64,000 nucleotides of DNA, from positions 1 to 64,000 of the forward strand of contig DATJGD010000063.1 in NCBI GenBank assembly GCA_035495255.1, in the 5' to 3' direction. Below, one piece after another: positions 1,488 to 58,761 of this stretch. The DNA comes from Bacteroidota bacterium (GTDB taxonomy: Bacteria > Bacteroidota > Ignavibacteria > UBA10030 > SZUA-254). Each line of letters opens with the position of its first letter. Within the stretch, counting starts at the first letter, position 1. A program made the position numbers and the translations under genes. The notes below the pieces were generated by a model. The model made no database searches. It saw nothing but the letters and a program-made list of their open reading frames with translations, and was not told where the DNA came from.

Positions 1488-2504
1488 TTACGCAAGATCG
1501 AGAATCGTTTCGCGGCCGCCGTCGCGAATAACGGCAATGCACCGTATTGCATCAGATTGGCGGATGATGTTCCTGGATTTGTCAATCCCCAGGACAAACA
1601 TGCCTGTTGAGAGCGCGTCAGCTCCACTAGCTGTCGGAGCGATGACGGTGCTGCTCAGGATCTTCGAGGCCGTTCTTCCGCTCGCCGGATCGAGAATGTG
1701 GCCGATACTCCCGCCGTCCGCTTCAATACTATTCTCGTAGTTTCCCGACGTTGAGAGGGCCTGATCACGAATCGTTACGCTCGTTATGATGTTCTCAGGT
1801 TCCATGGGATCGACAATTCCGACTTCCCATGCCTCTTCATCCGGTGGGGCGCCCAGGGCATATATATCCCCGCTGTGATTGACGAGCGCGGACTCGATTC
1901 CATGTTCTTTCAGAATTGTGATCGCTCTATCGATTGCAAAGCCTACGGCAATTCCTCCAAGGTCTAATTTCGTCTGAGCATACCGTAGATTCACCGTTGA
2001 GCGGCTGGCATCAACTGCGACATTACGCATTCCCACCGCGTCGAGTGTGATCGCTATTTGCTTATCTGTGGGAAAATGGTGAATGCTCTTGTCGTCACGA
2101 AATCCGTACAGCTCCATCAAAGGTTCTACCGTGATATCGAACGCACCGCCGGTCAATGCGCTATATTTTTTCGCGCTTTGCAGGACCTCGATAATTCTCG
2201 TATCGACGACGAGTTCCTTATCGAACGCACGATTATTTACAGCAGACAATTGGCTCTGTTCGTCGAACACGCTCATCAGCCTGTCGACTGATTTCATTTC
2301 GCTGATCGCTTCATCGATCGCCAGGTTGCAGCGCGCTTCGTCACCACAGTACGCCTTGAACGTAACGATGCTTCCCATCGCAAATGCCGCCCGTTCGACA
2401 TACCGCATCGGAGTGATGGTCTTCGCGAACGATTGGAAGGGCCGGAGTGTCGTGCCGAGGAGCAGTCCCGTCGAGAGCTTTAAAAATGTCCGGCGGGAAT
2501 TCAT
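1488..2504 (-). CDS. apbE: FAD:protein FMN transferase ApbE (periplasmic flavin transferase), Tat signal
   Basis: 338 aa. The N-terminus has an RRTFLK twin-arginine motif. Overall similarity is to the ApbE family (..GGIAVGFAIDRA.., ..SGNYE..). Its ATG overlaps the stop of the upstream 4-TM gene as ATGA. Confidence 0.8.
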   Translation of the reverse strand: MNSRRTFLKLSTGLLLGTTLRPFQSFAKTITPMRYVERAAFAMGSIVTFKAYCGDEARCNLAIDEAISEMKSVDRLMSVFDEQSQLSAVNNRAFDKELVVDTRIIEVLQSAKKYSALTGGAFDITVEPLMELYGFRDDKSIHHFPTDKQIAITLDAVGMRNVAVDASRSTVNLRYAQTKLDLGGIAVGFAIDRAITILKEHGIESALVNHSGDIYALGAPPDEEAWEVGIVDPMEPENIITSVTIRDQALSTSGNYENSIEADGGSIGHILDPASGRTASKILSSTVIAPTASGADALSTGMFVLGIDKSRNIIRQSDAIRCIAVIRDGGRETILDLA

Positions 2505-2995
2505 TTACGTATCCAGAGGTCCTTTAAAATAAGAAGGACCATGATGACGTAGCACGCCACCATCGAGATGCCCGAGAGGAGGACCATCCAGCTGAAATAC
2601 TCCGACACGAACCGCATCAGCCAGATTCCTCCGAATGTTGTGCCGATCGCGCCAAACGGCTCAACCAACAGGATGTCTTTGAATACGCCCGGCCGGAGAG
2701 AATGAAAATAAAAGATCGCGCCCACCGCGGCAAACACGAGTGAGAGCGATAGAATATGATTGTGGAGGAAGATATACATCTCATCGGCGCTCTTCGCGTA
2801 TTTCAGCTCCGCCGATTCCACGTTCTCCGGCGTACCCCGGAAATGTTCGCTTAAACCCCTGGTTGTGCCCGATGTGGTGTGGTCCACGAACAAGAGCCCG
2901 ATGGCATATCCCGAGCTGAGCACGATGAGGAATGCCGTAATAAATAACCGCAGCGTACGGTCCGCATCGCGCAGAGTCCAGCGCTGTCCGTTCAT
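2501..2995 (-). CDS. His-rich 4-TM membrane protein (DUF4405-like, putative b-type cytochrome / transmembrane electron carrier)
   Basis: 164 aa with four predicted TM helices. His residues sit at the helix ends (VDHTT, LHNHIL, FYFHSL). It lies between the FMN-binding protein and ApbE, and its start overlaps the FMN-binding gene's stop as TAATG. Confidence 0.45.
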   Translation of the reverse strand: MNGQRWTLRDADRTLRLFITAFLIVLSSGYAIGLLFVDHTTSGTTRGLSEHFRGTPENVESAELKYAKSADEMYIFLHNHILSLSLVFAAVGAIFYFHSLRPGVFKDILLVEPFGAIGTTFGGIWLMRFVSEYFSWMVLLSGISMVACYVIMVLLILKDLWIRK

Positions 2996-3534
2996 TATAA
3001 TGTTCCCTTCAGCAAGTCGTACGTCAGAAGAATCTTCCTGACACCAGTCGTAATCGCTCTGACTGAAATAGTCGCACCGCTGATGTTCTTGATGTCCTTC
3101 CCTGGTATCAGCTTGTCGGCCGAAGATTTGTCGCGGAACTGCCTCCGGAAAGACTCGTATGCCACTTCGCCTCCATAGGATTCGCGGTACGCTAAAATGT
3201 CGACATCCTGCACCTTGCCGTCGGTGTTTATCCCCGTGAGGTAGGTGATGAATTGGACCTTCCCTTTTACATCGTCGACAAATCCGTATCCCACGGTCTT
3301 CTGATGCGCTGAACATACGTAGACCTGCAGGGAATCGCGCTGCCATCTGCTGTGTGAGAGCCGTGCGATCGAATCTATCTCTGAACCAGACAGCCTTCGC
3401 CACGAAGAAGAGATGGCCGCTGAGTCTCCGAACATTTTGTGAAGTCCGGCTTTCGCCTTGTCTTCAATCGTCGATTGTCCCCGCGAGCTTGCTGCGAAGG
3501 CAATGAAACACAGGAAGCAGAGGAGCGATTTCAT
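2995..3534 (-). CDS. Secreted FMN-binding domain protein (FMN_bind; predicted ApbE flavinylation substrate)
   Basis: 179 aa with a signal peptide. The C-terminal motif DIKNISGATISVRAITTG matches the Dxx(S/T)GAT(S/T) flavinylation motif found in RnfG/NqrC/NosR-type FMN_bind domains. Confidence 0.65.
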   Translation of the reverse strand: MKSLLCFLCFIAFAASSRGQSTIEDKAKAGLHKMFGDSAAISSSWRRLSGSEIDSIARLSHSRWQRDSLQVYVCSAHQKTVGYGFVDDVKGKVQFITYLTGINTDGKVQDVDILAYRESYGGEVAYESFRRQFRDKSSADKLIPGKDIKNISGATISVRAITTGVRKILLTYDLLKGTL

Positions 3535-3536
3535 TC

Positions 3537-4646
3537 TCAGAAACTATATCCTATTCCGAAGTTCAGCTGTTTCGTGTTGACATCTGCGGCATTGTTGAAA
3601 AATTGATAGTCAATCTTAAACGCCGTGTTGAATGTCGGCTTGAAGGTAGCGCCGACGGTGGTGACATTCCGGTCGTAGAGCGGGTTTGCCGCAAATCCCG
3701 TGACTTTCGCCTGGGTATTGAATTTTTCGCAGCGGATAAACGGGGAGAGTGAAAATTCACTTTCGGCGCATAAGAGAGGCATCACGTCGTAGGCGCCTTC
3801 GATATAATAACCGTAGATCTGATCGGCGACATCGTTGCCATACACAGCGTTAATCTTGTCGGCGTCGCTGATGGCGGCAAAAGCGCCGACGGCCCGGAAC
3901 GTGAAACCGTTGGTGGAATACTGTGCATTGGCGGAGACGAGACCGACCGTCCCGCTTCCAAGCGCGGAATCACCTTCCGTTGTGCTGCCGACAAAAAACG
4001 AAGCGCCAAGCTTGAGGTCGGTGTTGGGTACGACATCGATGCGGCCTGTGATCGAGGGATTCATCGGCGAACTCTCGAGCGCTTCCTGGCGGCTTCCACG
4101 AAGGCCCTCTTCGCCGGACAAACCTTCAGCCCTGAGCCCCGCCATGGCGTATAATTGGTATGACGTGTTTTCCGCAAACGATCCGTAAATGCCTGCACCG
4201 GCTTCTCTCCACGTTGTCGGGATAACGACATCATCGACGCTGGGCCGTTCGACCCCGTTAAATGTCGGGGGCTCGTGGATTTGATTGATAACTCCGATAG
4301 GGGCAAGAATGATTCCGGCCTTCATCCCGAGATGTTCGGAAAAATGCCAGTCGAGGTATGCCTGCTCGATCGCGACCTCTCCTCCTTCAGCGCCGCCGGA
4401 ACCGGTCGCCTCGATCTTCGTGTGCTCAATTTCCACTTCCGACTTAAATGAAATCTTTTCATTAAACGTATGCCCCAGGTACAGGACGAACCGGTGAAAA
4501 TCGAGCGTTCCGCGGGCAGCCCCGTCCGGTTCATTGTAGTGCAGCTCGCCGTAGCCGCCGATGCTGGTGGTTTCCTGCGCGGAGGCAGCGAGAGTAAATG
4601 ACAGAGCGATGAACATGAGTGAAGTACGGCGTAGAAAGTTTTGCAT
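3537..4646 (-). CDS. Outer-membrane beta-barrel porin-like protein (start at MQNFLRR)
   Basis: It has a signal peptide ending ..AASAQ. The sequence shows an alternating amphipathic beta-strand pattern that is Gly/Ser/Thr/Tyr rich. The C-terminus ends in ..GIGYSF with an aromatic residue, as in OM barrels. Confidence 0.55.
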   Translation of the reverse strand: MQNFLRRTSLMFIALSFTLAASAQETTSIGGYGELHYNEPDGAARGTLDFHRFVLYLGHTFNEKISFKSEVEIEHTKIEATGSGGAEGGEVAIEQAYLDWHFSEHLGMKAGIILAPIGVINQIHEPPTFNGVERPSVDDVVIPTTWREAGAGIYGSFAENTSYQLYAMAGLRAEGLSGEEGLRGSRQEALESSPMNPSITGRIDVVPNTDLKLGASFFVGSTTEGDSALGSGTVGLVSANAQYSTNGFTFRAVGAFAAISDADKINAVYGNDVADQIYGYYIEGAYDVMPLLCAESEFSLSPFIRCEKFNTQAKVTGFAANPLYDRNVTTVGATFKPTFNTAFKIDYQFFNNAADVNTKQLNFGIGYSF

Positions 4647-4705
4647 TGGCAGCTTCCGTAAGTGAGTAATCGTGGTATGGAATAATGGTGACAAGGAGAA
4701 GAGCA

Positions 4706-5986
4706 CTATTGCTCTTTTGTCACGTCGAAATATTTTCTCTGTTTCTGCAAATCGACAACACGAATTTCTATATTTCCCTCATGAAGGCGCGAAGCGAGAA
4801 AGATCGGCGCGCATCCGTTACCCTCCATCGATCCGCTGTTGGAATCGTCGGGCGGCTCATCCGTCGCCTGGCGGAGCTTGCTGAGGGGGGAGGGCGCGTC
4901 ACAGAGCGAGCAAATCAGCTCGCCATTTTTCAAATAGTACTTGCCGTAGCTGTAGCAGGCATAACATGCATCAAAGGCGGTCCCGAATTTGCCAAGGCCG
5001 AGGCGGAGAATAAAGAATCGAATCTCCAGCCCGTTGTCCTCGATGGTAAAGCGATGAATTGCATTATCGCTCACGCGGGTGATCGGTATCCTCACGACTC
5101 CGGAAGAAGGTACCGGGACTGACTCTGCCGAAAAATCCATTGAAGTGTTCGACGAGAAGATCTCTCCGACCCCGAGGAAAAGAACCAGTCCCAGGGAGGC
5201 AATCGCGGCGGAGAGCTGCCAGCGCCGCTGAGGACGTGAAGATCCCGTACCGCTGCTGCGGCCGGGAATGAAGAACATTACCGCCGGAATACACACGATC
5301 GCGATAATGAAGAGCACTTCATGCTGAACGATCGGTCCCAGGATACCCATCATGTGCGGGTTTGCGGGGAACACTCCGTACTCGTAAAACTCGTGCAGGG
5401 AGTTGACGACGAGCTGGAGCGCAAAGATCAACAATGTTATCGCCGTGACCTTGAGAAAGCGGACGATGTCGATGCGGATGCTTCCGCGGATAAAGAGTAC
5501 GGCGAAGACCACGGCGATCGAAAACCCTGCAAGCGTGCCCAGCAGGCTTCCCCATGCGTTTGTGCTCAGAGAGACCGCCTGGAGAAATATCGCCGTTTCG
5601 ATTCCTTCACGGACAATCATAAAAAACGTGAAGCTGATGATACTGAGATGTGCGCGCCACTGCCCGGATGCCTCGACGATGGTGTTCACCCGCTGTTCGA
5701 TCTCTCCTTTGATCTTTTTGCCTGTAAACCACATCCAGACAACCATGGAGATGACAAAGACTGCGGCAATAAGCTGGAAGAGGCCTTCGAGCGATTCCTG
5801 GTCGATCGCCAATTTTTGAAATATCATCGCCCCGCCGATGCTGGCGACGATTGCGAGGCAGAGCCCGAGATAGACGGAGCTGACCAGGAAGGGGCTTCCG
5901 ATCTTCTGGAGGTAGACAACGAGAATCCCTATAACAAGCGCTATTTCTATTCCCTCGCGAAGGGCGATAATTAACGATTCAACCAT
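4706..5986 (-). CDS. FTR1/EfeU-family high-affinity iron permease fused to a C-terminal Cys-rich (DUF2318-like) domain
   Basis: There are two REGIE motifs (REGIEIA, REGIETA) within TM helices, which are the hallmark of FTR1 permeases. The C-terminal ~120 aa carry CYACYSYG..CSLCD, i.e. two CxxC pairs. Confidence 0.75.
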   Translation of the reverse strand: MVESLIIALREGIEIALVIGILVVYLQKIGSPFLVSSVYLGLCLAIVASIGGAMIFQKLAIDQESLEGLFQLIAAVFVISMVVWMWFTGKKIKGEIEQRVNTIVEASGQWRAHLSIISFTFFMIVREGIETAIFLQAVSLSTNAWGSLLGTLAGFSIAVVFAVLFIRGSIRIDIVRFLKVTAITLLIFALQLVVNSLHEFYEYGVFPANPHMMGILGPIVQHEVLFIIAIVCIPAVMFFIPGRSSGTGSSRPQRRWQLSAAIASLGLVLFLGVGEIFSSNTSMDFSAESVPVPSSGVVRIPITRVSDNAIHRFTIEDNGLEIRFFILRLGLGKFGTAFDACYACYSYGKYYLKNGELICSLCDAPSPLSKLRQATDEPPDDSNSGSMEGNGCAPIFLASRLHEGNIEIRVVDLQKQRKYFDVTKEQ

Positions 5987-5989
5987 AAC

Positions 5990-6436
5990 CTAAGATTTTT
6001 TCTTCGATTGGCACTTTGCGCATGTCCCGAAAATCTGAAGAGAGGAATTGCGCGGGCGAAATCTTTTCTCCTCACACACTTCCCGTTGGATCTTTTCGAG
6101 CTTATCATTGACAAATTCGATTATTTCGCCGCAATCGAGGCAAATGAGATGGTCATGACGGGGCCGGCCAAATGCTTTTTCGTACCGGGAATGATCCTCG
6201 CCAAATTGGAGCCGTGAAATCAATCCGCATTCGACAAGGAGGTCGAGGGTATTATAGACGGTGGCACGCGAGGCCTTCAGTCCTTTTTGGTTGAGAGAGG
6301 CGAACAACTGATCGGCATCAAAATGCCCGTTCGATTGCATTATCTGTTCGAGAAGAAGAAACCGCTCCTTTGTAGGGCGCAGCCTCTTTTCTTTCAAATA
6401 TGACGATAGTGTGGTTTTTGCAGCTTCGATATCCAA
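5990..6436 (-). CDS. fur: Ferric uptake regulator Fur (TTG start)
   Basis: An N-terminal winged helix is present. The HDHLICLDCGEIIEF block is nearly identical to the E. coli Fur metal-site block. There is a C-terminal CxxC. Confidence 0.8.
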   Translation of the reverse strand: MDIEAAKTTLSSYLKEKRLRPTKERFLLLEQIMQSNGHFDADQLFASLNQKGLKASRATVYNTLDLLVECGLISRLQFGEDHSRYEKAFGRPRHDHLICLDCGEIIEFVNDKLEKIQREVCEEKRFRPRNSSLQIFGTCAKCQSKKKS

Positions 6437-12907: not shown

Positions 12908-13699
12908 ATGTCAGTCCCCATTTACCAGGTAGATGCGTTCGTTTCAGACCGAAAGTTTTCCGGCAATCCTGCGGGTGTATGCATTCTTCCGGAGAAAGCG
13001 GATGACGCGTGGATGCAAAACGTGGCGATGGAAATGAATGTCTCCGAGACGGCATTTCTCGTGAAACGCTCCGATGGTTACGATCTTCGCTGGTTCACGC
13101 CGTCGGTGGAAGTCGCGCTCTGCGGGCACGCGACACTGGCGAGCGCGCATGTGCTCTGGGAGACGGGCCAGCTCGGCAAGGAAATGCCCGCACGGTTTCA
13201 CACGAAAAGCGGATTGCTTACCGCTGAACGGAGGGAAGAATTCGTCGAGATCGATCTTCCCGCAGTAGTCGAAGCTGCTGAGACCCCTCCGCCGGAGCTT
13301 CTCATCGCTCTGGGTATCACCGCACAGTACGCCGGGAAAAACCGATTCGACTACCTTATCGAGGTTGAGTCTGAGAGCATTGTTCGCGGCATCAGGCCGG
13401 ATTTCACTACGCTTCGAAAGCTACCGGTACGCGGAGTCATGGTGACGAGCCGTTCTCAAGATCCGGCATATGATATTGTCTCAAGGTTTTTTGCGCCGGG
13501 GGCTGGAGTGGATGAAGATCCCGTTACAGGGTCTGCACACTGCTGCCTTGCACCATATTGGAGTGCAAAGCTCGGCAAGACTGAACTTGTTGCGTACCAG
13601 GCGTCGCCGCGTGGCGGAGTACTGCATCTGAAAGTTGCCGGCGACCGGGTCAAACTTGCAGGCACCGCGGTTACGGCGTTACGAGGAGAGCTGCTCTAG
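12908..13699 (+). CDS. PhzF-family isomerase (phenazine biosynthesis-like protein)
   Basis: 263 aa. The N-terminal block is typical of the PhzF/YHI9 family (IYQVDAF.. ..GNPAGV.. ..ETAF.. ..LRWFTP..E..LCGHATLA). Confidence 0.8.
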   Translation: MSVPIYQVDAFVSDRKFSGNPAGVCILPEKADDAWMQNVAMEMNVSETAFLVKRSDGYDLRWFTPSVEVALCGHATLASAHVLWETGQLGKEMPARFHTKSGLLTAERREEFVEIDLPAVVEAAETPPPELLIALGITAQYAGKNRFDYLIEVESESIVRGIRPDFTTLRKLPVRGVMVTSRSQDPAYDIVSRFFAPGAGVDEDPVTGSAHCCLAPYWSAKLGKTELVAYQASPRGGVLHLKVAGDRVKLAGTAVTALRGELL

Positions 13700-15097
13700 A
13701 CTACCCCGGTTCCCCAGTTTCCCACATCCCCACAACACCAGGCTCACGGCTAATCCGGGATACATCGGCTCAATGCCGAGGAGATACGTCCCGCTCCGGC
13801 CGGCAGCATAGCTTTCCAACAGCCACAGAAGCGAAGTAAGCCATCCACACAGCATGGAGTAAAAGGCGTACCGCGCCGGAATGTGCAATGCGGGAAAATA
13901 ACTTGCAATCAGCGGCACAAGCAATCCCGGAATGATGATCGTCCCAATCGTGTACCAGATGCTGATGACGCTGGGGAGGAGAAGCGCCAGAAGAATTGAA
14001 AACATCAATGAAAGGATGAGGCCTATCTTCGTAAGCCGCGTCGAAAGCACTTCAGGCTGGCTTGTCGTGACGGACAATCTCATGACAATATCCCTTCCCA
14101 GCGTTTGAGCAGAAACAAACGCGAGTGTATTCAGCGTCGACATGATCGTGGCAAGCATGCCAACATAAAACACCCCTTTGGCGAACGGGGGTAAGACCGC
14201 CTCTGCCAGCATGGGGTACGCCGTGACCGGATTGGCGAGGTTCGGAAGTGCAGCCCGCGCGTAGAGGCCGGCGGTCGCGGTCATAAAATCGAAAACACAC
14301 CAGAAAATTATTGAAACAAGAATGCCCCGCTGAGCGACCTTTCCCGATGACGCGGCGTAACAGCGTTGATGGAACGCCGGATCTACAAGCGTCCAGAGGG
14401 CGATGAAAAACCAGACGATGATAAACTGCATTGAGTTTCCGCCGTGCCACGTCAAATGGAGCGGGGGCAAATGCGCTTTCAGATAGTCGAACCCGCCGTA
14501 GGTCATAACAGCATAGGGAAGGATCACCGCAAATCCGACAAACATGAGAATAAATTCGACCACGTCGGTTTCGACGTCAGCCCGGAATCCGCCGGCGTAG
14601 AGGTACGATATTGCGGTGACGGCAGTAACGAGAAGACTGATCAACAAATTCCATCCGAACAACATTTGAATAAAGACGCTGAGCATAAGGATGTAGGGGG
14701 CCGGGGTCATGAGAATGAATGTCAACCCCGCACCGAGGACCGCAGTCCGCTTGTCGTACGACTGTGCGAGCTTGTCAGGAATGGAGAAGAGGTTCGTGGC
14801 CCGCACCTTCTTCGCCAGAAAGAAGGCGAACACGGCTGCGAAAACGTAATACGGGACTCCCTGAATCACCCAATTAGATATTCCGTACCGGTAGGAAAAC
14901 TCTCCCACACCAAGGATGCCCCCGTACCAGGTCGAGACGAGTGTCATGACAAAGACAGGGAGGGTGAGCGATCTTCCCGCAAGAAGAAAATCCTCCTCAT
15001 CCGCGCTGCTCTTTTTCACGGTTCGAAAACCGACGTACATCACGAGCCCAAAATAGAGTACGATGACGACAATATCCGCAGCAGCGAGGTGAATCAT
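13679..15097 (-). CDS. Sodium:solute symporter (SSS) family transporter, candidate ThiV-like thiamine/precursor importer
   Basis: It has about 13 TM helices and an SSS-family pattern. It is the last gene of the TPP-riboswitch operon, translationally coupled to TPK. Confidence 0.7.
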   Translation of the reverse strand: MIHLAAADIVVIVLYFGLVMYVGFRTVKKSSADEEDFLLAGRSLTLPVFVMTLVSTWYGGILGVGEFSYRYGISNWVIQGVPYYVFAAVFAFFLAKKVRATNLFSIPDKLAQSYDKRTAVLGAGLTFILMTPAPYILMLSVFIQMLFGWNLLISLLVTAVTAISYLYAGGFRADVETDVVEFILMFVGFAVILPYAVMTYGGFDYLKAHLPPLHLTWHGGNSMQFIIVWFFIALWTLVDPAFHQRCYAASSGKVAQRGILVSIIFWCVFDFMTATAGLYARAALPNLANPVTAYPMLAEAVLPPFAKGVFYVGMLATIMSTLNTLAFVSAQTLGRDIVMRLSVTTSQPEVLSTRLTKIGLILSLMFSILLALLLPSVISIWYTIGTIIIPGLLVPLIASYFPALHIPARYAFYSMLCGWLTSLLWLLESYAAGRSGTYLLGIEPMYPGLAVSLVLWGCGKLGNRGSLEQLSS

Positions 15098-15729
15098 GCC
15101 CGGGAGAACAGATAGAGAAGAAGCGTTCCTTTTCTTACGCTGACGGTGACGGCGGAGGAGGTAGCCTGGTTACTGATCCCTTCGCGCTTGCCGAGTTCCA
15201 GTGTTTCATTGTTCAGCGGATACAGGAGGTTGCGGGTTGTAATACCGGAACACCGGTCAAGGGGAATAAGAGAAATCTTTTGGCCTTTTTTCGCCTCGAC
15301 TTTTATTGTTCCGTGAACACGAAGAAGCATTCCATAGGCATCGTGAAAACGCAGTTCGATTCTTTCCCCAAATTCTTTAAAGCATCCGAGGCTCCCCGTT
15401 GCGTGATCGATCCGTTCCCCCAGCGCGCCGACGATGTCTGCCTGCCGGACGCCGCGACGCACACAAAACGAGATCGCCTTCTCCAGATCGGTGCTCTCCT
15501 GATCTTCAATAAGGACAATCGGTACGCGGGAAAAGTGTTTTTTTGTCGCGGGAGAAATAGAATCGAGATCGCCGAGAATGATATCGGGCTTCAGGCGTCG
15601 TTTGCGTGCCTTGTTCGCACCTCCGTCGGCACAGACGATGAGACCGGCCGCGGCAACCAGCTTGCTCAGGTTTGGTTGCGCGGGGAGAGGGCCGTTGGCG
15701 ATGATAAGAGCGGTCTTTGCACCTGGCAT
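15094..15729 (-). CDS. thiN: Thiamine pyrophosphokinase (thiamin diphosphokinase, TPK)
   Basis: 211 aa. It shows the TPK catalytic domain pattern (IIANGP.., CADGGAN.., GDLDS) and a C-terminal thiamin-binding domain. Confidence 0.7.
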   Translation of the reverse strand: MPGAKTALIIANGPLPAQPNLSKLVAAAGLIVCADGGANKARKRRLKPDIILGDLDSISPATKKHFSRVPIVLIEDQESTDLEKAISFCVRRGVRQADIVGALGERIDHATGSLGCFKEFGERIELRFHDAYGMLLRVHGTIKVEAKKGQKISLIPLDRCSGITTRNLLYPLNNETLELGKREGISNQATSSAVTVSVRKGTLLLYLFSRA

Positions 15730-15732
15730 AGG

Positions 15733-17973
15733 TTAGTACGTTACTGTTACGCCGAGCAGATAATTGCGCTCCGCGGCGGGGAAAAAGGAATCCGACTCGC
15801 CACTTGTGAAATACAAATTATTGAACAGATTCCTGACTTCTGCCCGGAGGTTCAACTTGACGCCAAACGCCTTCTCAATTGTGTAGAGGAGGCTGGCATC
15901 GGTGACGCCATACGCATCGTTCTTAGTACCCTTAAAATTATCAGTATAAAATTCTCCGACATACCGTCCTGCCAGTGAAGCCGTGAACTGTTCATCGCGG
16001 TACATCAGGCGAAGATTCGCCAGGAAGTCGGGAAACCCGGCGATAGGATTGTCGTCGAGGACCGTCAGTGTACCGCCTTCTATCACAGAAGACCGGATAA
16101 ACCTGTTGCGGGAGAGCGACAGGTTGCCGCCGAGCTCCAATCGATCGAACGGCTTGCACGAAGCCTCGATCTCCATTCCCAGGTGCCGGGTTCGCTCAGC
16201 GTTGCCGGTAACCGGCTGGCCGAAAATATCCACCTGCCCGTTGTTCACGAGCTCATCGGTGAATTCCATCCAATAGAGGTTGAATGTGAAACGATAGTTT
16301 GAAGCCGCTACGCCGAATCCAGCCTCGACGTCGAGAAGGTGTTCCGGATTCGCGAGAGGCTTGGAAAAATCGAACGTGACGGCGCCTCCCGTGGTGTCGG
16401 CTGCGAACTGCGGCGTGGCGCCGAAGTAGGAATCCTCCGCGGCATAGAGATTGCGAAGCCTCGGCTCGCGCGAGGTGTACCCGATCGAAAGATACGTATT
16501 CGCCTTTTCGTTTATGTTATAATTAACTCCAAGGCGGGGATTGGCAAAGAAATAAGAATAACTGAAATTGTTGCCGAGAAATTTTTCATTTGCAACGCCG
16601 TAGCGATTATGAATCATCTGAACGTCGGCGAGAATATTCGTCTGCTCCGAGACCCGGTATAATTCGTGCGCATAGAATGAGAAGATGTCTTTTTCACCGT
16701 TATACTCGTAGAAGTGATAGTCCGGATCGAGGTTTGGCGGCAACCCTTCGGCAAATTGTATCTTTCCCCAGTGCGTCGAGCGGTGAATTCTTGCTTCTGC
16801 GCCGACGATGAGTTTGCCGCTCGTGTGATCGATTTCAATCCGGGGAAGCCATCCGAACTGTTTGTTGCCGACGAACGCACGCACGAGAGTATTCCCGGGA
16901 TTTTGAGATGCCGGAATACCGTAGCTGTACCCGATGCGGAGCATTGACGTGTCGGCCCATGACGCATCGTAATCGAAATACCCGTCTCCGGTATAATAGA
17001 AGAACGTGTTGGCGAGGGTCAGGGCTGGCGCGATGTGCCACTCGTTGAGGAGCTCGTAATGAGGCTGTGAAAAACTTTCGGCTTCCTGGAGACGCCGTTG
17101 CTGGACAAACGAATATGCCGATCCTGTCGAGTCAGTCTCCCATGCGGCGAGATTCTGCCGGCGCAGCGCAGGATCGTCGTTGACGAACTTCGGGAGCCCT
17201 GTGTACGCCAACCCGTCGGTCAGCGGGCCACCGAAAAAATGTATCCTCGTTGTCATATCCTTGTCGTAACGGACCGCACCTAAAAAATACGAATTAAGCT
17301 CAACCCACGAGTTCTCCCGGTAGCCGTCGCTGAGAATTTTTCCGAGCCTGCCATAAAAAAGATAGCGCTGGCCGACAAGCCCGGAGTTGAAGGTGGCGCC
17401 AAACTTCCGGGTAGTGAGGGCCGTTGCCTTGTCGCCATATTCCTGAAATCCGAATATCGATTCCAGAGAGACAGACGGGTTCAGCTCGAACGGGCTGGAA
17501 ATGAGATTCACCGATCCGCCGATCGCGGGGGGGCCGTAGAACGCGCTGCCGGCCCCGCGCTGGACCTGGATGCTTCCGGTGCTCGCAAGGAGATCCGGAA
17601 AGTCGATCCAGTAGACGTTGTGATCCTCAGGATCATTTTGCGGAATGCCGTTCACCATGACGGACAACCGCCGCTGATCGAACCCGCGCAGGTTGATATA
17701 ATTGTAGCCGATCCCGTTTCCATTCTCCGAGTAATAGGTAATCGACGGAAGCTCGGAAAGCAAGAGTGGAATGTCTTGAACCGAATACCTTGTCTTCAGC
17801 TGTTCGCCGTTGAGATTCGAAAAAGTTGCCGGCGTTTCCCGCTCGCGCGCCTCGACCGGGCTGATGGTCACTGTGGGGAGGGCGTAGACTGTGTCACGGG
17901 ACGTCGTTGTGGTATCCTGCGATCGTGCAGCAGAGGCCGGGATGAGGAACAGCAGTACAAGCAAGATCTTCAT
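15733..17973 (-). CDS. TonB-dependent outer-membrane receptor, candidate thiamine receptor
   Basis: 746 aa. It has a signal peptide, a TonB-box-like TVTISP, a plug domain and a 22-strand barrel. It lies directly downstream of the TPP riboswitch. Confidence 0.85.
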   Translation of the reverse strand: MKILLVLLFLIPASAARSQDTTTTSRDTVYALPTVTISPVEARERETPATFSNLNGEQLKTRYSVQDIPLLLSELPSITYYSENGNGIGYNYINLRGFDQRRLSVMVNGIPQNDPEDHNVYWIDFPDLLASTGSIQVQRGAGSAFYGPPAIGGSVNLISSPFELNPSVSLESIFGFQEYGDKATALTTRKFGATFNSGLVGQRYLFYGRLGKILSDGYRENSWVELNSYFLGAVRYDKDMTTRIHFFGGPLTDGLAYTGLPKFVNDDPALRRQNLAAWETDSTGSAYSFVQQRRLQEAESFSQPHYELLNEWHIAPALTLANTFFYYTGDGYFDYDASWADTSMLRIGYSYGIPASQNPGNTLVRAFVGNKQFGWLPRIEIDHTSGKLIVGAEARIHRSTHWGKIQFAEGLPPNLDPDYHFYEYNGEKDIFSFYAHELYRVSEQTNILADVQMIHNRYGVANEKFLGNNFSYSYFFANPRLGVNYNINEKANTYLSIGYTSREPRLRNLYAAEDSYFGATPQFAADTTGGAVTFDFSKPLANPEHLLDVEAGFGVAASNYRFTFNLYWMEFTDELVNNGQVDIFGQPVTGNAERTRHLGMEIEASCKPFDRLELGGNLSLSRNRFIRSSVIEGGTLTVLDDNPIAGFPDFLANLRLMYRDEQFTASLAGRYVGEFYTDNFKGTKNDAYGVTDASLLYTIEKAFGVKLNLRAEVRNLFNNLYFTSGESDSFFPAAERNYLLGVTVTY

Positions 17974-17990
17974 AATTGAGGAATACGTAG

Positions 17991-18030
17991 TTGAAAATAA
18001 AAATGCCGTTCTCAGAGCAAAGAAAACGGC
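17991..18030 (-). terminator. Intrinsic terminator forming the riboswitch expression platform
   Basis: The minus strand reads GCCGTT(TT)CT-ttgctctg-AGAACGGC followed by ATTTTTATTTT. It lies between the aptamer and the receptor ATG at 17973. Confidence 0.6.
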
Positions 18031-18035
18031 ACGAA

Positions 18036-18135
18036 TTTTCTCCGTTTTCCTACGCTGGCATGATCCAGATCAGGTTTCCAGGGTTTTTCTCAGCCTCCCG
18101 ACGATTCGGGAGACACCCCTAACGGCTACACGAAA
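18036..18135 (-). ncRNA. TPP (thiamine pyrophosphate) riboswitch aptamer, THI-box
   Basis: The minus strand reads GCCGTTAGGGGTGTCTCCCGAATCGTCGGGAGGCTGAGAAAAACCCTGGAAACCTGATCTGGATCATGCCAGCGTAGGAAAACGGAG. This contains the canonical CUGAGA, ACCC and ACCUGAUCUGGAU(A/C)AUGCCAGCGUAGGA blocks, with the P1 stem formed by CCGTT/AACGG. Confidence 0.85.
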
Positions 18136-18289
18136 ATATAGGAGAATGAACGAAGGAATGCAAGTTGACTTTCCATAACCCCGTGATTATATTGGTTGTG
18201 CAAAACCGCAGCATGCCTGTCCCGGGAATGAACATTCATAATCTATCCAATCACGCGCCTTCACGCGCGCAACAAAAAGGAGAATCGCC

Positions 18290-18721
18290 ATGTCCATGAT
18301 GAAAGAGTTCAAAGAATTCGCGATGAAAGGTAATGTCGTCGACCTGGCTGTCGGCGTCATTATCGGCGCGGCATTCGGCAAAATCGTAAGCTCTCTCGTT
18401 GCTGATGTCCTCATGCCTCCGATCGGCATGGTCATGGGCGGCCTGGATTTCAGCGATCTCGTGATCACGCTGAAAGAGGCAATCGGAACGGCGCCGGCTG
18501 TCGTCGTGCGATACGGTGTCTTCATCAATACGATCATCGACTTTATCATCGTCGCGTTCTGTATCTTCATGATGATCCGGACAATGAACAGGATGAGAAG
18601 GAAGGAAGCAGCGCCGGCGGAAATCGCCTCTCCGACATCCAAAACCTGTTCCGAATGCATGATGGTTATCCCCATCGGCGCAAAACGCTGCGGACACTGC
18701 GGCGTGGAATTGCGGTCGTAA
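18290..18721 (+). CDS. mscL: Large-conductance mechanosensitive channel MscL with an atypical C-terminal zinc-ribbon (CSEC..CGHC)
   Basis: The N-terminal 110 aa are nearly identical in pattern to E. coli MscL ([35 protein letters not shown]). The C-terminus carries CxxC-x11-CxxC. An AAGGAG SD is present. Confidence 0.85.
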
Positions 18722-56707: not shown

Positions 56708-56886
56708 CCTTTTGACCGCATCTCCCCCTGGAATGGGGGTGAATTTCCTGCTAAATCTTCCGAATCGGAGTATTGACTCTCTCTTCGGGGAAGTCTATAT
56801 TCTTCCTGATTCTCTCTACCTCAATTCTCTCGCCGGGCGGCGGGAGAATATTCTTTCTCACAGGACGTTTCAGATGGGTACACATC

Positions 56887-58761
56887 ATGTTGAAGACTTC
56901 GCGGCTGCAACTGTTGGTACTTTTGTTTCTCGGTATCGCAACACGAGCTTACGCTGACACCCCGCGGGGGTTCGTTGCTTCGGTTCACCTGGACACGACC
57001 GCCTTTACGGATATATCTGCGGGAATGACCGGTGCCGTGTTTAGTTCCGGCGCTTGGGTCGATTATGATAACGACGGAGATCTCGATGTCTTTATTTCAG
57101 GGATTTCCCCGGGCTTCCAGTATTTTTCAAAGATCTACCGTAACGACGCCGGAAGCTTTACCGATATCAATGCCGGGCTTGCCGGTGTTCAATCCGAGCA
57201 CAATGTTGCATGGGGAGATTACGATAATGACGGAGACCTGGATCTTTTGCTGATGGGTCAGGCCGGCCCTCCGGTTTCACTGGCAATAACGAAGATTTAT
57301 CGAAATGACGGCGGCGTTTTTGTCAATATCGGCACTCCAATCCCGGGCCTGATGTACGGTTCGGCTGCCTGGGGAGACTATGACAATGACGGCGACCTGG
57401 ATATTCTTGTCACTGGATCGCCGGATCAGGGACTTTCGTTCTTCTCAAAGGTTTACAGGAACGACAACGGATCTTTCGTCGATATCAATGCAGGGCTTCC
57501 GGGGGTTTGGGGAAGTTCTGCGGTCTGGGGCGACTACGACAACGACGGGGACCTGGATATTTTTCTGAATGGGTACGGTGATCTTGGAGGTACGAGCCTG
57601 ATATTCAGAAACACGAACGGTGTTTTTACCAGTATTGGAGGTGGACTCGGCCTCAAGAATAGCGGCCAACTTGCAGTGGGGGATTTTGATAACGATGGCG
57701 ACATCGACGTTCTGTGCTCGGGAGATCACTTCGGAGCAGTAAACGCATTTACGACAATTTACAGAAATGACAACGGCACATTTGTCGACACGCATCCCGG
57801 TCTCGTGCAAGTAGAGGAAAGCGCGCAGGCATGGGGGGATTACGACAATGACGGCGACCTTGATATTCTCATCGCGGGATATCGTGACTCCGACGGAGTG
57901 TTTTTCACCAAGGTGTACAGGAACGACGGTGGGATCTTCACAGACATTGGCGCCGACCTGCCGGGTACGGCGAACGGCACCGTAGCCTGGGGCGACTACG
58001 ACAACGATGGAGATCTTGACATTCTTGTCGTCGGCGGGACAAGCGATACAGCCCCGTTTAGTCCGATCGCGCGAATTTACCGGAACAATCTCGGTTCGAA
58101 TACGTTTTCACCCAACTCTACGCCGACTATCCCTGCGAATCTCGCGTCCGCCGTGCAGGCTAACTCCGTCCGCTTGTCGTGGGACCGTTCGACTGATAGC
58201 CAAACCGATGCGCACGCTCTCACGTATAATCTCCGCGTCGGAACTCTTCCATCAGGCAGCCAAACGATCTCTCCAATGGCGAACGGAGCCACCGGATACC
58301 GGCAGATCGTCCAACTCGGAAATGCAAACCTTGACAGTTCGTGGACACTTAAGGGTCTGCCGGCAGGGACATACTACTGGAGCGTGCAGGCGATCGATAA
58401 TGCCTTTGCCGGGTCGCCATTCGGCGGAGAACAAAGCTTCGTAATAAGTCCAATGGGCGTTTCCGAGATCCCAGGATCGATACCCAGCGTGACCAGACTT
58501 GTTCAAAATTATCCAAATCCATTTAACCCGACGACGACGGTTCCGTTCGATCTCGCGCACGACGGTTCGGTGAGGATTGAGATCTATAACATCCTCGGTC
58601 AGAACGTCAAAAAGTTGGCGGAATCGGATCTCCATGCGGGACGATATGAGGCTGCGTTCAACGGATCCGATCTGCCAAGCGGCATCTACTATTGCAGGAT
58701 GACATTGCAGAGCGGAGGGAGCTCGTTCAATGAAATGAAAAAACTTGTTATGATGAAATAG
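56887..58761 (+). CDS. Secreted FG-GAP/VCBS-repeat protein (CRTAC1/ASPIC-like) with an FN3-like domain and a T9SS C-terminal sorting domain
   Basis: It has a signal peptide. There are about 8 WGDYDNDGDLD repeats. The C-terminus reads YPNPFNPTTTVPFDL..IEIYNILGQNVKKL..GIYYCRM, which is a Por_Secre_tail. Confidence 0.75.
   Translation: MLKTSRLQLLVLLFLGIATRAYADTPRGFVASVHLDTTAFTDISAGMTGAVFSSGAWVDYDNDGDLDVFISGISPGFQYFSKIYRNDAGSFTDINAGLAGVQSEHNVAWGDYDNDGDLDLLLMGQAGPPVSLAITKIYRNDGGVFVNIGTPIPGLMYGSAAWGDYDNDGDLDILVTGSPDQGLSFFSKVYRNDNGSFVDINAGLPGVWGSSAVWGDYDNDGDLDIFLNGYGDLGGTSLIFRNTNGVFTSIGGGLGLKNSGQLAVGDFDNDGDIDVLCSGDHFGAVNAFTTIYRNDNGTFVDTHPGLVQVEESAQAWGDYDNDGDLDILIAGYRDSDGVFFTKVYRNDGGIFTDIGADLPGTANGTVAWGDYDNDGDLDILVVGGTSDTAPFSPIARIYRNNLGSNTFSPNSTPTIPANLASAVQANSVRLSWDRSTDSQTDAHALTYNLRVGTLPSGSQTISPMANGATGYRQIVQLGNANLDSSWTLKGLPAGTYYWSVQAIDNAFAGSPFGGEQSFVISPMGVSEIPGSIPSVTRLVQNYPNPFNPTTTVPFDLAHDGSVRIEIYNILGQNVKKLAESDLHAGRYEAAFNGSDLPSGIYYCRMTLQSGGSSFNEMKKLVMMK

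Follow-up and report, generated by a model that had tools for sequence, protein, structure and literature searches.

A candidate TPP-repressed operon for thiamine uptake and activation, with a sodium:solute symporter linked to thiamine pyrophosphokinase, in an Ignavibacteria-lineage genome

The stretch of DNA considered here, 64,000 nucleotides from the start of contig DATJGD010000063.1 (GenBank assembly GCA_035495255.1) and hereafter called the window, comes from a Bacteroidota bacterium placed in the Ignavibacteria. On its minus strand it carries a thiamine pyrophosphate (TPP) riboswitch, followed by genes for a TonB-dependent receptor, a thiamine pyrophosphokinase (TPK), and a protein of the sodium:solute symporter (SSS) family. 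We consider it highly likely that these parts make up a TPP-repressed operon for the uptake and activation of thiamine. An earlier note on this DNA had proposed a TPP-riboswitch-controlled route that brings thiamine in across the outer membrane and ends with TPP in the cytoplasm, and that proposal is supported by matches to Rfam, NCBIfam, and Pfam models, by the terminator/antiterminator anatomy of the leader, and by the linkage of the parts across phyla. The features on which the argument turns are listed below, in the direction of transcription.

18030 to 18130, minus strand: TPP riboswitch aptamer (THI element), matched by RF00059 with 71.7 bits (E 3.8e-12)

18042 to 18050, minus strand: 3' arm of helix P1 with adjacent bases, GGAAAACGG, for which the alternative pairing with 18021 to 18029 (CCGUUUUCU) is the antiterminator

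17993 to 18032, minus strand: intrinsic terminator (expression platform) from the terminator scan, 11 pairs and then TTTTATTTTC

15733 to 17973, minus strand: TonB-dependent outer-membrane receptor, 746 aa, candidate thiamine receptor, with Plug and barrel Pfam matches

15094 to 15729, minus strand: thiamine pyrophosphokinase, 211 aa, matched by TIGR01378 with 151 bits

13679 to 15097, minus strand: sodium:solute symporter family protein, 472 aa, candidate inner-membrane Na+/thiamine importer, matched by PF00474

The three open reading frames (ORFs) lie head to tail, with a gap of 3 nt (15730-15732) between the receptor and TPK genes and a 4-nt ATGA overlap (15094-15097) between the TPK and symporter genes. 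Such close junctions argue for a single transcript and for coupled translation, and because dozens of species-level genomes share this gene order, the arrangement is not due to chance. The earlier note had described a TPP riboswitch and then three genes with 3-nt and overlapping junctions, in the order receptor, TPK, and symporter; the ORF and Rfam scans bear out the layout, and the Pfam and NCBIfam matches bear out the order. It had also found the window free of thiamine biosynthesis genes, and our Pfam scan agrees: among all 52 non-overlapping window ORFs of at least 90 aa, no match to PnuT/NMN_transporter or to any family of thiamine biosynthesis turned up, and eight of these ORFs gave no Pfam match of any kind. 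A tblastn search of the 64-kb window with the ThiM, ThiE, and ThiL proteins of a related locus (L010, discussed below) likewise gave no match.

The aptamer lies just outside the interval 13679-17973 that the earlier note had marked. It is matched over the full length of RF00059 (model positions 1-105 of 105, not truncated) with a score well above the gathering score of 54.3 bits, it is the sole Rfam match in the window, and the conserved aptamer cores CUGAGA and ACCUGAUCUGGAUCAUGCCAGCGUAGG are seen in its sequence. Directly 3' of it stands the intrinsic terminator, in which 18032-18022 pairs with 18013-18003 around a loop of 8 nt and is followed by the U-run TTTTATTTTC at 18002-17993; it ends 20 nt ahead of the receptor ATG. 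This hairpin is present in both the minimum-free-energy and the centroid folds of the leader (z = -3.3 against shuffled sequences). If the terminator's 3' arm is left out of the fold, the leader forms the antiterminator GGAAAACGG/CCGUUUUCU instead, with folding energies of -15.2 kcal/mol for the sub-sequence and -39.8 kcal/mol for the nascent transcript. Since the antiterminator segment GGAAAACGG includes the 3' strand of P1, the pair of P1 and terminator on the one hand, and the antiterminator on the other, are mutually exclusive. Judged from its sequence and predicted folds, the platform is of the classical transcriptional OFF type. A crude scan found a comparable hairpin and U-run in 26 of 49 related leaders; the remaining leaders may use other platforms or escape the pattern of the scan.

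We propose that the operon would work as follows. On the minus strand, transcription would begin a short way upstream of 18130. At high TPP levels in the cell, the ligand would bind the aptamer and lock helix P1; the hairpin of the terminator (18032-18003), together with its U-run, would then form, and transcription would be halted ahead of the receptor gene. At low TPP levels, the P1 3' arm (GGAAAACGG) would pair with the 5' arm of the terminator, and the polymerase would go on to transcribe all three genes. Passage over the outer membrane would then be the task of the TonB-dependent receptor, for thiamine and possibly for its phosphates or further vitamers as well; at the inner membrane, the SSS protein would import free thiamine, driven by the Na+ gradient; and TPK would turn the imported thiamine directly into TPP, closing the feedback loop.

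The enzyme of this route is clearly assigned. The 211-aa protein passes the TIGR01378 equivalog model for thiamine diphosphokinase (EC 2.7.6.2; cut-off 76.4 bits) and contains both domains of the family, PF04263 TPK_catalytic (93.7 bits) and PF04265 TPK_B1_binding (49.9 bits). Its best solved relative is 2omk (E 2e-28), which we take to be the TPK of Bacteroides thetaiotaomicron, and the catalytic motifs GDxDS, DQExxD, and GxxGxRxDH align between the two. TPK converts thiamine and ATP into TPP and AMP, and it accepts intact thiamine only.

The product of 15733-17973 has the build of a TonB-dependent receptor: a hydrophobic N-terminus (MKILLVLLFLIPASA) that is a signal peptide, then an N-terminal plug (PF07715 Plug, 61 bits, residues 44-153), and then a beta-barrel of the 22-strand type (PF00593 TonB_dep_Rec_b-barrel, 92 bits, residues 265-716). 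It reaches no NCBIfam equivalog. In tblastn searches its orthologues (44-68% identity) precede the TPK-SSS pair in most related loci, and its own placement, directly behind a TPP riboswitch and beside TPK and an inner-membrane carrier, is that of the OMthi/BT2390 type. Solved TonB-dependent receptors proved no guide to its specificity, which was unreadable from them: even with a profile only distant relatives were found, namely YncD/PqqU, the closest at about 65 bits, FecA, and CirA.

As for the last gene, the earlier note had named it an SSS-family symporter and called it "ThiV-like". The first of these statements is confirmed by the PF00474 SSF match (102.6 bits, cut-off 22.8), although the stricter TIGR00813 superfamily model (cut-off 184) is not reached at 108.6 bits. 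The AlphaFold (AF2) model (pLDDT 81.6, pTM 0.83) has the SSS/LeuT fold, with TM scores of 0.79-0.81 to SGLT2 and CHT1. Within the PDB, the closest match by sequence is to the high-affinity choline transporter (61.7 bits). Reading a substrate from solved structures was given up, because the sequence and fold searches returned generic SSS proteins only (CHT1, SGLT, SiaT, and NIS) and nothing substrate-specific. The symporter is probably Na+-coupled, which fits the Na2-site motif M319-S320-T321, whose Ser/Thr pair is conserved in 23-24 of 27 family members.

The second statement holds in part. The supplement of PMC11452348 provided SSS reference sequences (SAR11_0811, SSSP, SSSQ/Dur31, PanF, PutP, and SiaT), and we compared the protein with them by BLASTP and phmmer. 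Against SAR11 ThiV its score is 43 bits (24% identity over 156 aa), and BLAST gave no match to the eukaryotic SSSP and SSSQ/Dur31, whereas ThiV, SSSP, and SSSQ/Dur31 score 110-152 bits among themselves. These values place the symporter outside the ThiV/SSSP clade, and ThiV orthology was rejected with respect to the SAR11_0811/SSSP/Dur31 set, which is the scope of the comparison. In other words, "ThiV-like" stands as a functional analogy and fails as a description of the sequence. Identity with PutP was likewise rejected (40 bits to the protein itself; 47.6 bits against TIGR02121, cut-off 515.5).

To which group, then, does the symporter belong? An exhaustive HMMER scan of 1.84 billion representatives at 50% identity returned a family of 316 clusters at 50% identity (E<=1e-30). 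The best 150 of the 316 representatives score 184-580 bits to the window symporter and at most 98 bits to PanF, and the closest relatives (63-76% identity) are found in metagenome-assembled genomes (MAGs) of the Ignavibacteria type. On these comparisons the protein is a member of a discrete, unnamed SSS clade linked to TPK, for which there is no NCBIfam entry. It should be mentioned that one entry of the representative library (P0155) is predicted as a single protein of 1238 aa, in which a symporter of this family (residues 11-458) is joined to a complete Plug and TonB barrel. Because a single polypeptide cannot occupy both membranes, we set a real fusion aside; the entry is probably an artefact of gene calling or read-through, and it shows the symporter and receptor genes adjacent, in reverse order, in some genome.

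The evidence that ties this clade to thiamine comes mainly from comparative genomics. Taking one genome per species, we collected 80 loci with symporter orthologues (47-71% identity) from MAGs of the Ignavibacteria, Kryptoniota, Calditrichia, Armatimonadota, Eisenbacteria, Cloacimonadota, Marinimicrobia, and Dormibacterota, and used the three window proteins as tblastn queries against them. A TPK gene lies directly upstream of the symporter gene on the same strand in 68 of the 75 evaluable loci, a TonB receptor gene lies upstream in 60 of the 80, and the core motif of the TPP aptamer lies upstream on the same strand in 52 of the 69 evaluable loci; all four parts are found together in 45 loci. 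The aptamer count combines the core-motif search (49 loci) with Rfam matches in three further loci. When 12 motif-positive loci were re-checked with Rfam, nine were above the gathering score (66-76 bits) and three were below it, all with an insert of about 70 nt; two of these three, when re-tested, scored 36-38 bits (E 2e-4 and 6e-4), and the third is L076. The regular expression for the aptamer core therefore over-calls slightly, which bears on the counts that include six long-insert loci.

It is noteworthy that the TPK-SSS pair persists in the Armatimonadota, where the receptor is absent. Since TPK acts on nothing other than intact thiamine, its linkage to the symporter points to thiamine, rather than hydroxymethylpyrimidine (HMP), as the cargo. 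This linkage is the strongest available argument for thiamine as the cargo, and on balance we think it likely that the symporter itself carries thiamine.

Four Armatimonadota loci (L063:5213-8494, L067, L068, and L076) consist of a riboswitch, a DUF1559 protein, TPK, and SSS, with no receptor. The riboswitch scores 66-79 bits in the three Rfam-positive loci, and in L076 it is a core-motif match only, below the gathering score. The extra protein has 231 aa, with a prokaryotic N-terminal methylation (prepilin) motif and a DUF1559/SBP_bac_10 domain, and it holds the slot that the TonB receptor has in the Ignavibacteria. DUF1559 is a very large family of unknown function, so that a thiamine-regulated member may offer a functional clue, perhaps that of a binding or capture protein. 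Another variant was seen at L012, L021, and L034, where a different TonB receptor (35% identity to that of the window), with an N-terminal extension of about 100 aa, adjoins the symporter and TPK is missing. The aptamers of L021 and L034 have a long P3 insert and reach only 36-38 bits in Rfam.

Several observations weigh against the reading of the symporter as a thiamine importer within one riboswitch-controlled unit, and they are taken up here together with the alternatives that they favor. The linkage is incomplete. Seventeen of the 69 evaluable loci (those with 300 nt or more ahead of the first gene of the operon) have no TPP aptamer at the Rfam gathering score: L025, L037, L038, L039, L043, L049, L053, L059, L060, L065, L069-L071, L073, L074, L078, and L079; among these, L043, L053, L059, and L060 still keep the receptor, TPK, and symporter genes together. 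Two orthologues, L065:7001-8353 and L078:6914-8326 (49-50% identity), are found in unrelated gene contexts, the first next to an M29 peptidase and a patatin-Omp85 protein, the second next to an acyltransferase and a molybdopterin oxidoreductase, and the thiamine linkage is thus not universal near 50% identity. By sequence, moreover, the nearest characterized relative of the symporter is the pantothenate symporter PanF of Escherichia coli (27% identity over 378 aa, 98 bits), and our literature search found no experimental study of this SSS clade.

The PanF match and the two orthologues in non-thiamine contexts would suit a symporter that carries pantothenate, or is some other unrelated carrier, and only shares the transcript, thiamine crossing the inner membrane by an unlinked transporter. 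Against the PanF equivalog TIGR02119, however, the protein scores 100 bits, far below the cut-off of 328, and PanF identity was rejected; the best 150 family representatives, as described above, match the window protein far better than they match PanF; and the linkage to TPK and the riboswitch is kept across at least five phylum-level groups, which hitch-hiking would not preserve. We regard this explanation as very improbable.

In a second alternative, the cargo of the symporter is a precursor or breakdown product of thiamine, such as HMP, hydroxyethylthiazole (HET), or formylaminopyrimidine (FAMP), so that TPK serves only thiamine that arrives from the receptor or by another route. Whole-cell uptake data identify the riboswitch-linked SSS proteins of SAR11 as importers of HMP (PMC11452348). 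A related observation comes from L010:1471-8380 (Ignavibacteriae MAG BY39), in which thiM, thiE, and thiL-like genes, assigned from their translations alone, lie in the same operon upstream of the receptor, TPK, and symporter genes. One riboswitch there precedes precursor salvage and thiamine uptake genes merged in a single operon, and this locus leaves room for a precursor or vitamer as the substrate. On the other side, the ThiV/SSSP clade does not include the symporter; its partner is TPK in the great majority of loci, as counted above, and thiM/thiE in only one of the 80; the import of precursors requires ThiD and ThiE, neither of which is linked; and the window scan revealed no PnuT as a further thiamine carrier of the inner membrane. 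We therefore prefer thiamine as the cargo and think the precursor alternative unlikely.

A third alternative concerns the regulation. The riboswitch might govern the receptor gene only, with TPK and the symporter expressed constitutively from internal promoters, and the three genes would then not be one regulatory unit. There is a precedent that counts against our reading, because expression of tnr3, the TPK gene of B. thetaiotaomicron, does not respond to thiamine at the mRNA level (PMC5613172), and riboswitch control of distal genes is therefore not to be assumed. Matches resembling sigma-70 promoters also occur within the receptor coding region, but their number is at chance level (five, against 3.3 +/- 2.1 expected). 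The gene junctions of 3 nt and -4 nt, and the terminator scan, in which the riboswitch's own terminator was the only strong terminator-like site, argue for one unit, as does the Armatimonadota arrangement, where the riboswitch precedes TPK and SSS without any receptor. Separate expression of the distal genes seems to us quite unlikely, and co-transcription under the riboswitch is the preferred account.

Taken one step further, we lean slightly towards the view that the TPK-linked symporter is a third SSS lineage recruited independently for vitamin B1 uptake, apart from ThiV/SSSP/Dur31 and from PanF, and that it acts as a Na+-driven, high-affinity importer in place of PnuT in the Ignavibacteria, Kryptoniota, Calditrichia, Armatimonadota, and neighboring groups. 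A further possibility is that the outer-envelope partners vary around a TPK-SSS core, being a TonB receptor in lineages of the Fibrobacterota-Chlorobiota-Bacteroidota (FCB) group and a riboswitch-controlled prepilin-type DUF1559 protein in the Armatimonadota. If partners can indeed be exchanged on this core, the Armatimonadota protein would give a first functional hint for the DUF1559 family.

The genes around the operon lie outside the unit. Upstream, a gene for MscL (18290-18721, plus strand) is divergent from it. Downstream, a PhzF-family gene (12908-13699, plus strand) is convergent, its 3' end overlapping the symporter gene by 21 nt (13679-13699), and no terminator-like site was seen between the two genes; a PhzF neighbor is also found at locus L008. 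Contigs with an identical symporter protein have the same neighborhood as the window. In a contig with an identical operon, the public gene call includes a hypothetical protein of 95 aa opposite the riboswitch and leader (window 17891-18178, plus strand); because the 71.7-bit RF00059 match lies at the same place, this ORF is almost certainly spurious. Farther away, the minus-strand interval 1488-6436 resembles an iron-uptake cluster, with Fur (5990-6436), an FTR1 permease fused to an FtrD-like domain (4706-5986), ApbE (1488-2504), and two ORFs without a Pfam match. The plus-strand interval 37213-63313 is a long same-strand cluster of surface-glycan genes, comprising a TMEM260-like O-mannosyltransferase, several glycosyltransferases (GT1, GT2, GT4, and GT9), methyltransferases, a flippase, YfhO, a UDP-GlcNAc 2-epimerase, and a dTDP-sugar epimerase, into which the gene for an FG-GAP protein sorted by the type IX secretion system (56773-58761) breaks.

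Thiamine auxotrophy and the exchange of vitamins shape communities in soil, sediment, and the gut. Surveys of B1 transporters use marker sets made up of thiB, thiT, pnuT, thiV, omr1, and cytX, and such sets would probably miss the TPK-linked clade, because it is not ThiV and its NCBI name is merely "sodium:solute symporter family protein". With its 316 clusters, the clade is well defined and very consistent in its context, so that a single uptake result could supply an annotation for the inner-membrane step of thiamine uptake in several poorly cultured phyla. The remaining value of this locus lies in a well-delimited candidate family of Na+/thiamine importers and, in the Armatimonadota, in a riboswitch-controlled, pseudopilin-like DUF1559 protein.

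The operon itself is an ordinary solution that has already been described, and its architecture is not new, being in print for Caldithrix abyssi. Kublanov et al. (2017) reported there a locus, Cabys_3975-3977, with a TPP riboswitch, a TonB receptor called "highly similar to BT2390", a sodium-solute symporter, and TPK; they predicted that the organism is auxotrophic for thiamine and interpreted the locus as serving its uptake (PMC5317091). The window has the same four-part architecture in a host of Ignavibacteria-like lineage, unlike that of C. abyssi, and both loci are known from genes alone. A Calditrichia MAG locus (L072) connects the two: it has orthologues of the window receptor (46% identity), TPK (32%), and SSS (50%), together with an RF00059 match of 75.9 bits, although, unlike the window, it carries an extra 205-aa ORF without a Pfam match between the receptor and TPK genes. 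Through this locus, the window proteins would be orthologous to those of C. abyssi. The published architecture and the L072 orthologues together make the window operon another member of that architecture.

Among characterized carriers, ThiV (SAR11_0811), the eukaryotic SSSP, and Candida Dur31 are, like the window symporter, SSS-superfamily proteins linked to TPP riboswitches, and they are connected with the uptake of thiamine or HMP (PMC11452348, PMC5997356). SAR11 ThiV is tied to HMP salvage and not to TPK, whereas the window symporter is linked to TPK and falls in a different clade. E. coli PanF shares the fold and the conserved Na2-site MST motif with the window symporter; the genomic context of the latter, however, is thiamine and not coenzyme A, and the representatives of its own family are far closer to it.

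The characterized analogue of the whole operon is found in Bacteroides. As cited in later papers (PMC2211319, PMC5613172), the predictions of Rodionov et al. (2002) included TPP-regulated receptors of the outer membrane (omr) as well as PnuT and ThiV. Costliow and Degnan (2017) later gave genetic evidence that OMthi (BT2390) and PnuT of B. thetaiotaomicron take part in thiamine uptake, and OMthi-pnuT-tnr3 forms one riboswitch-controlled operon in most gut Bacteroidetes (PMC5613172). The window operon has the same parts, that is, a TPP riboswitch, a TonB receptor, an inner-membrane carrier, and TPK. It differs in its expression platform, which has a clear intrinsic terminator, and above all in the inner-membrane step, for which Bacteroides has the small facilitator PnuT and the window has a symporter of 472 aa that is probably Na+-coupled. 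The presence of SSS in place of PnuT is a case of non-orthologous displacement.

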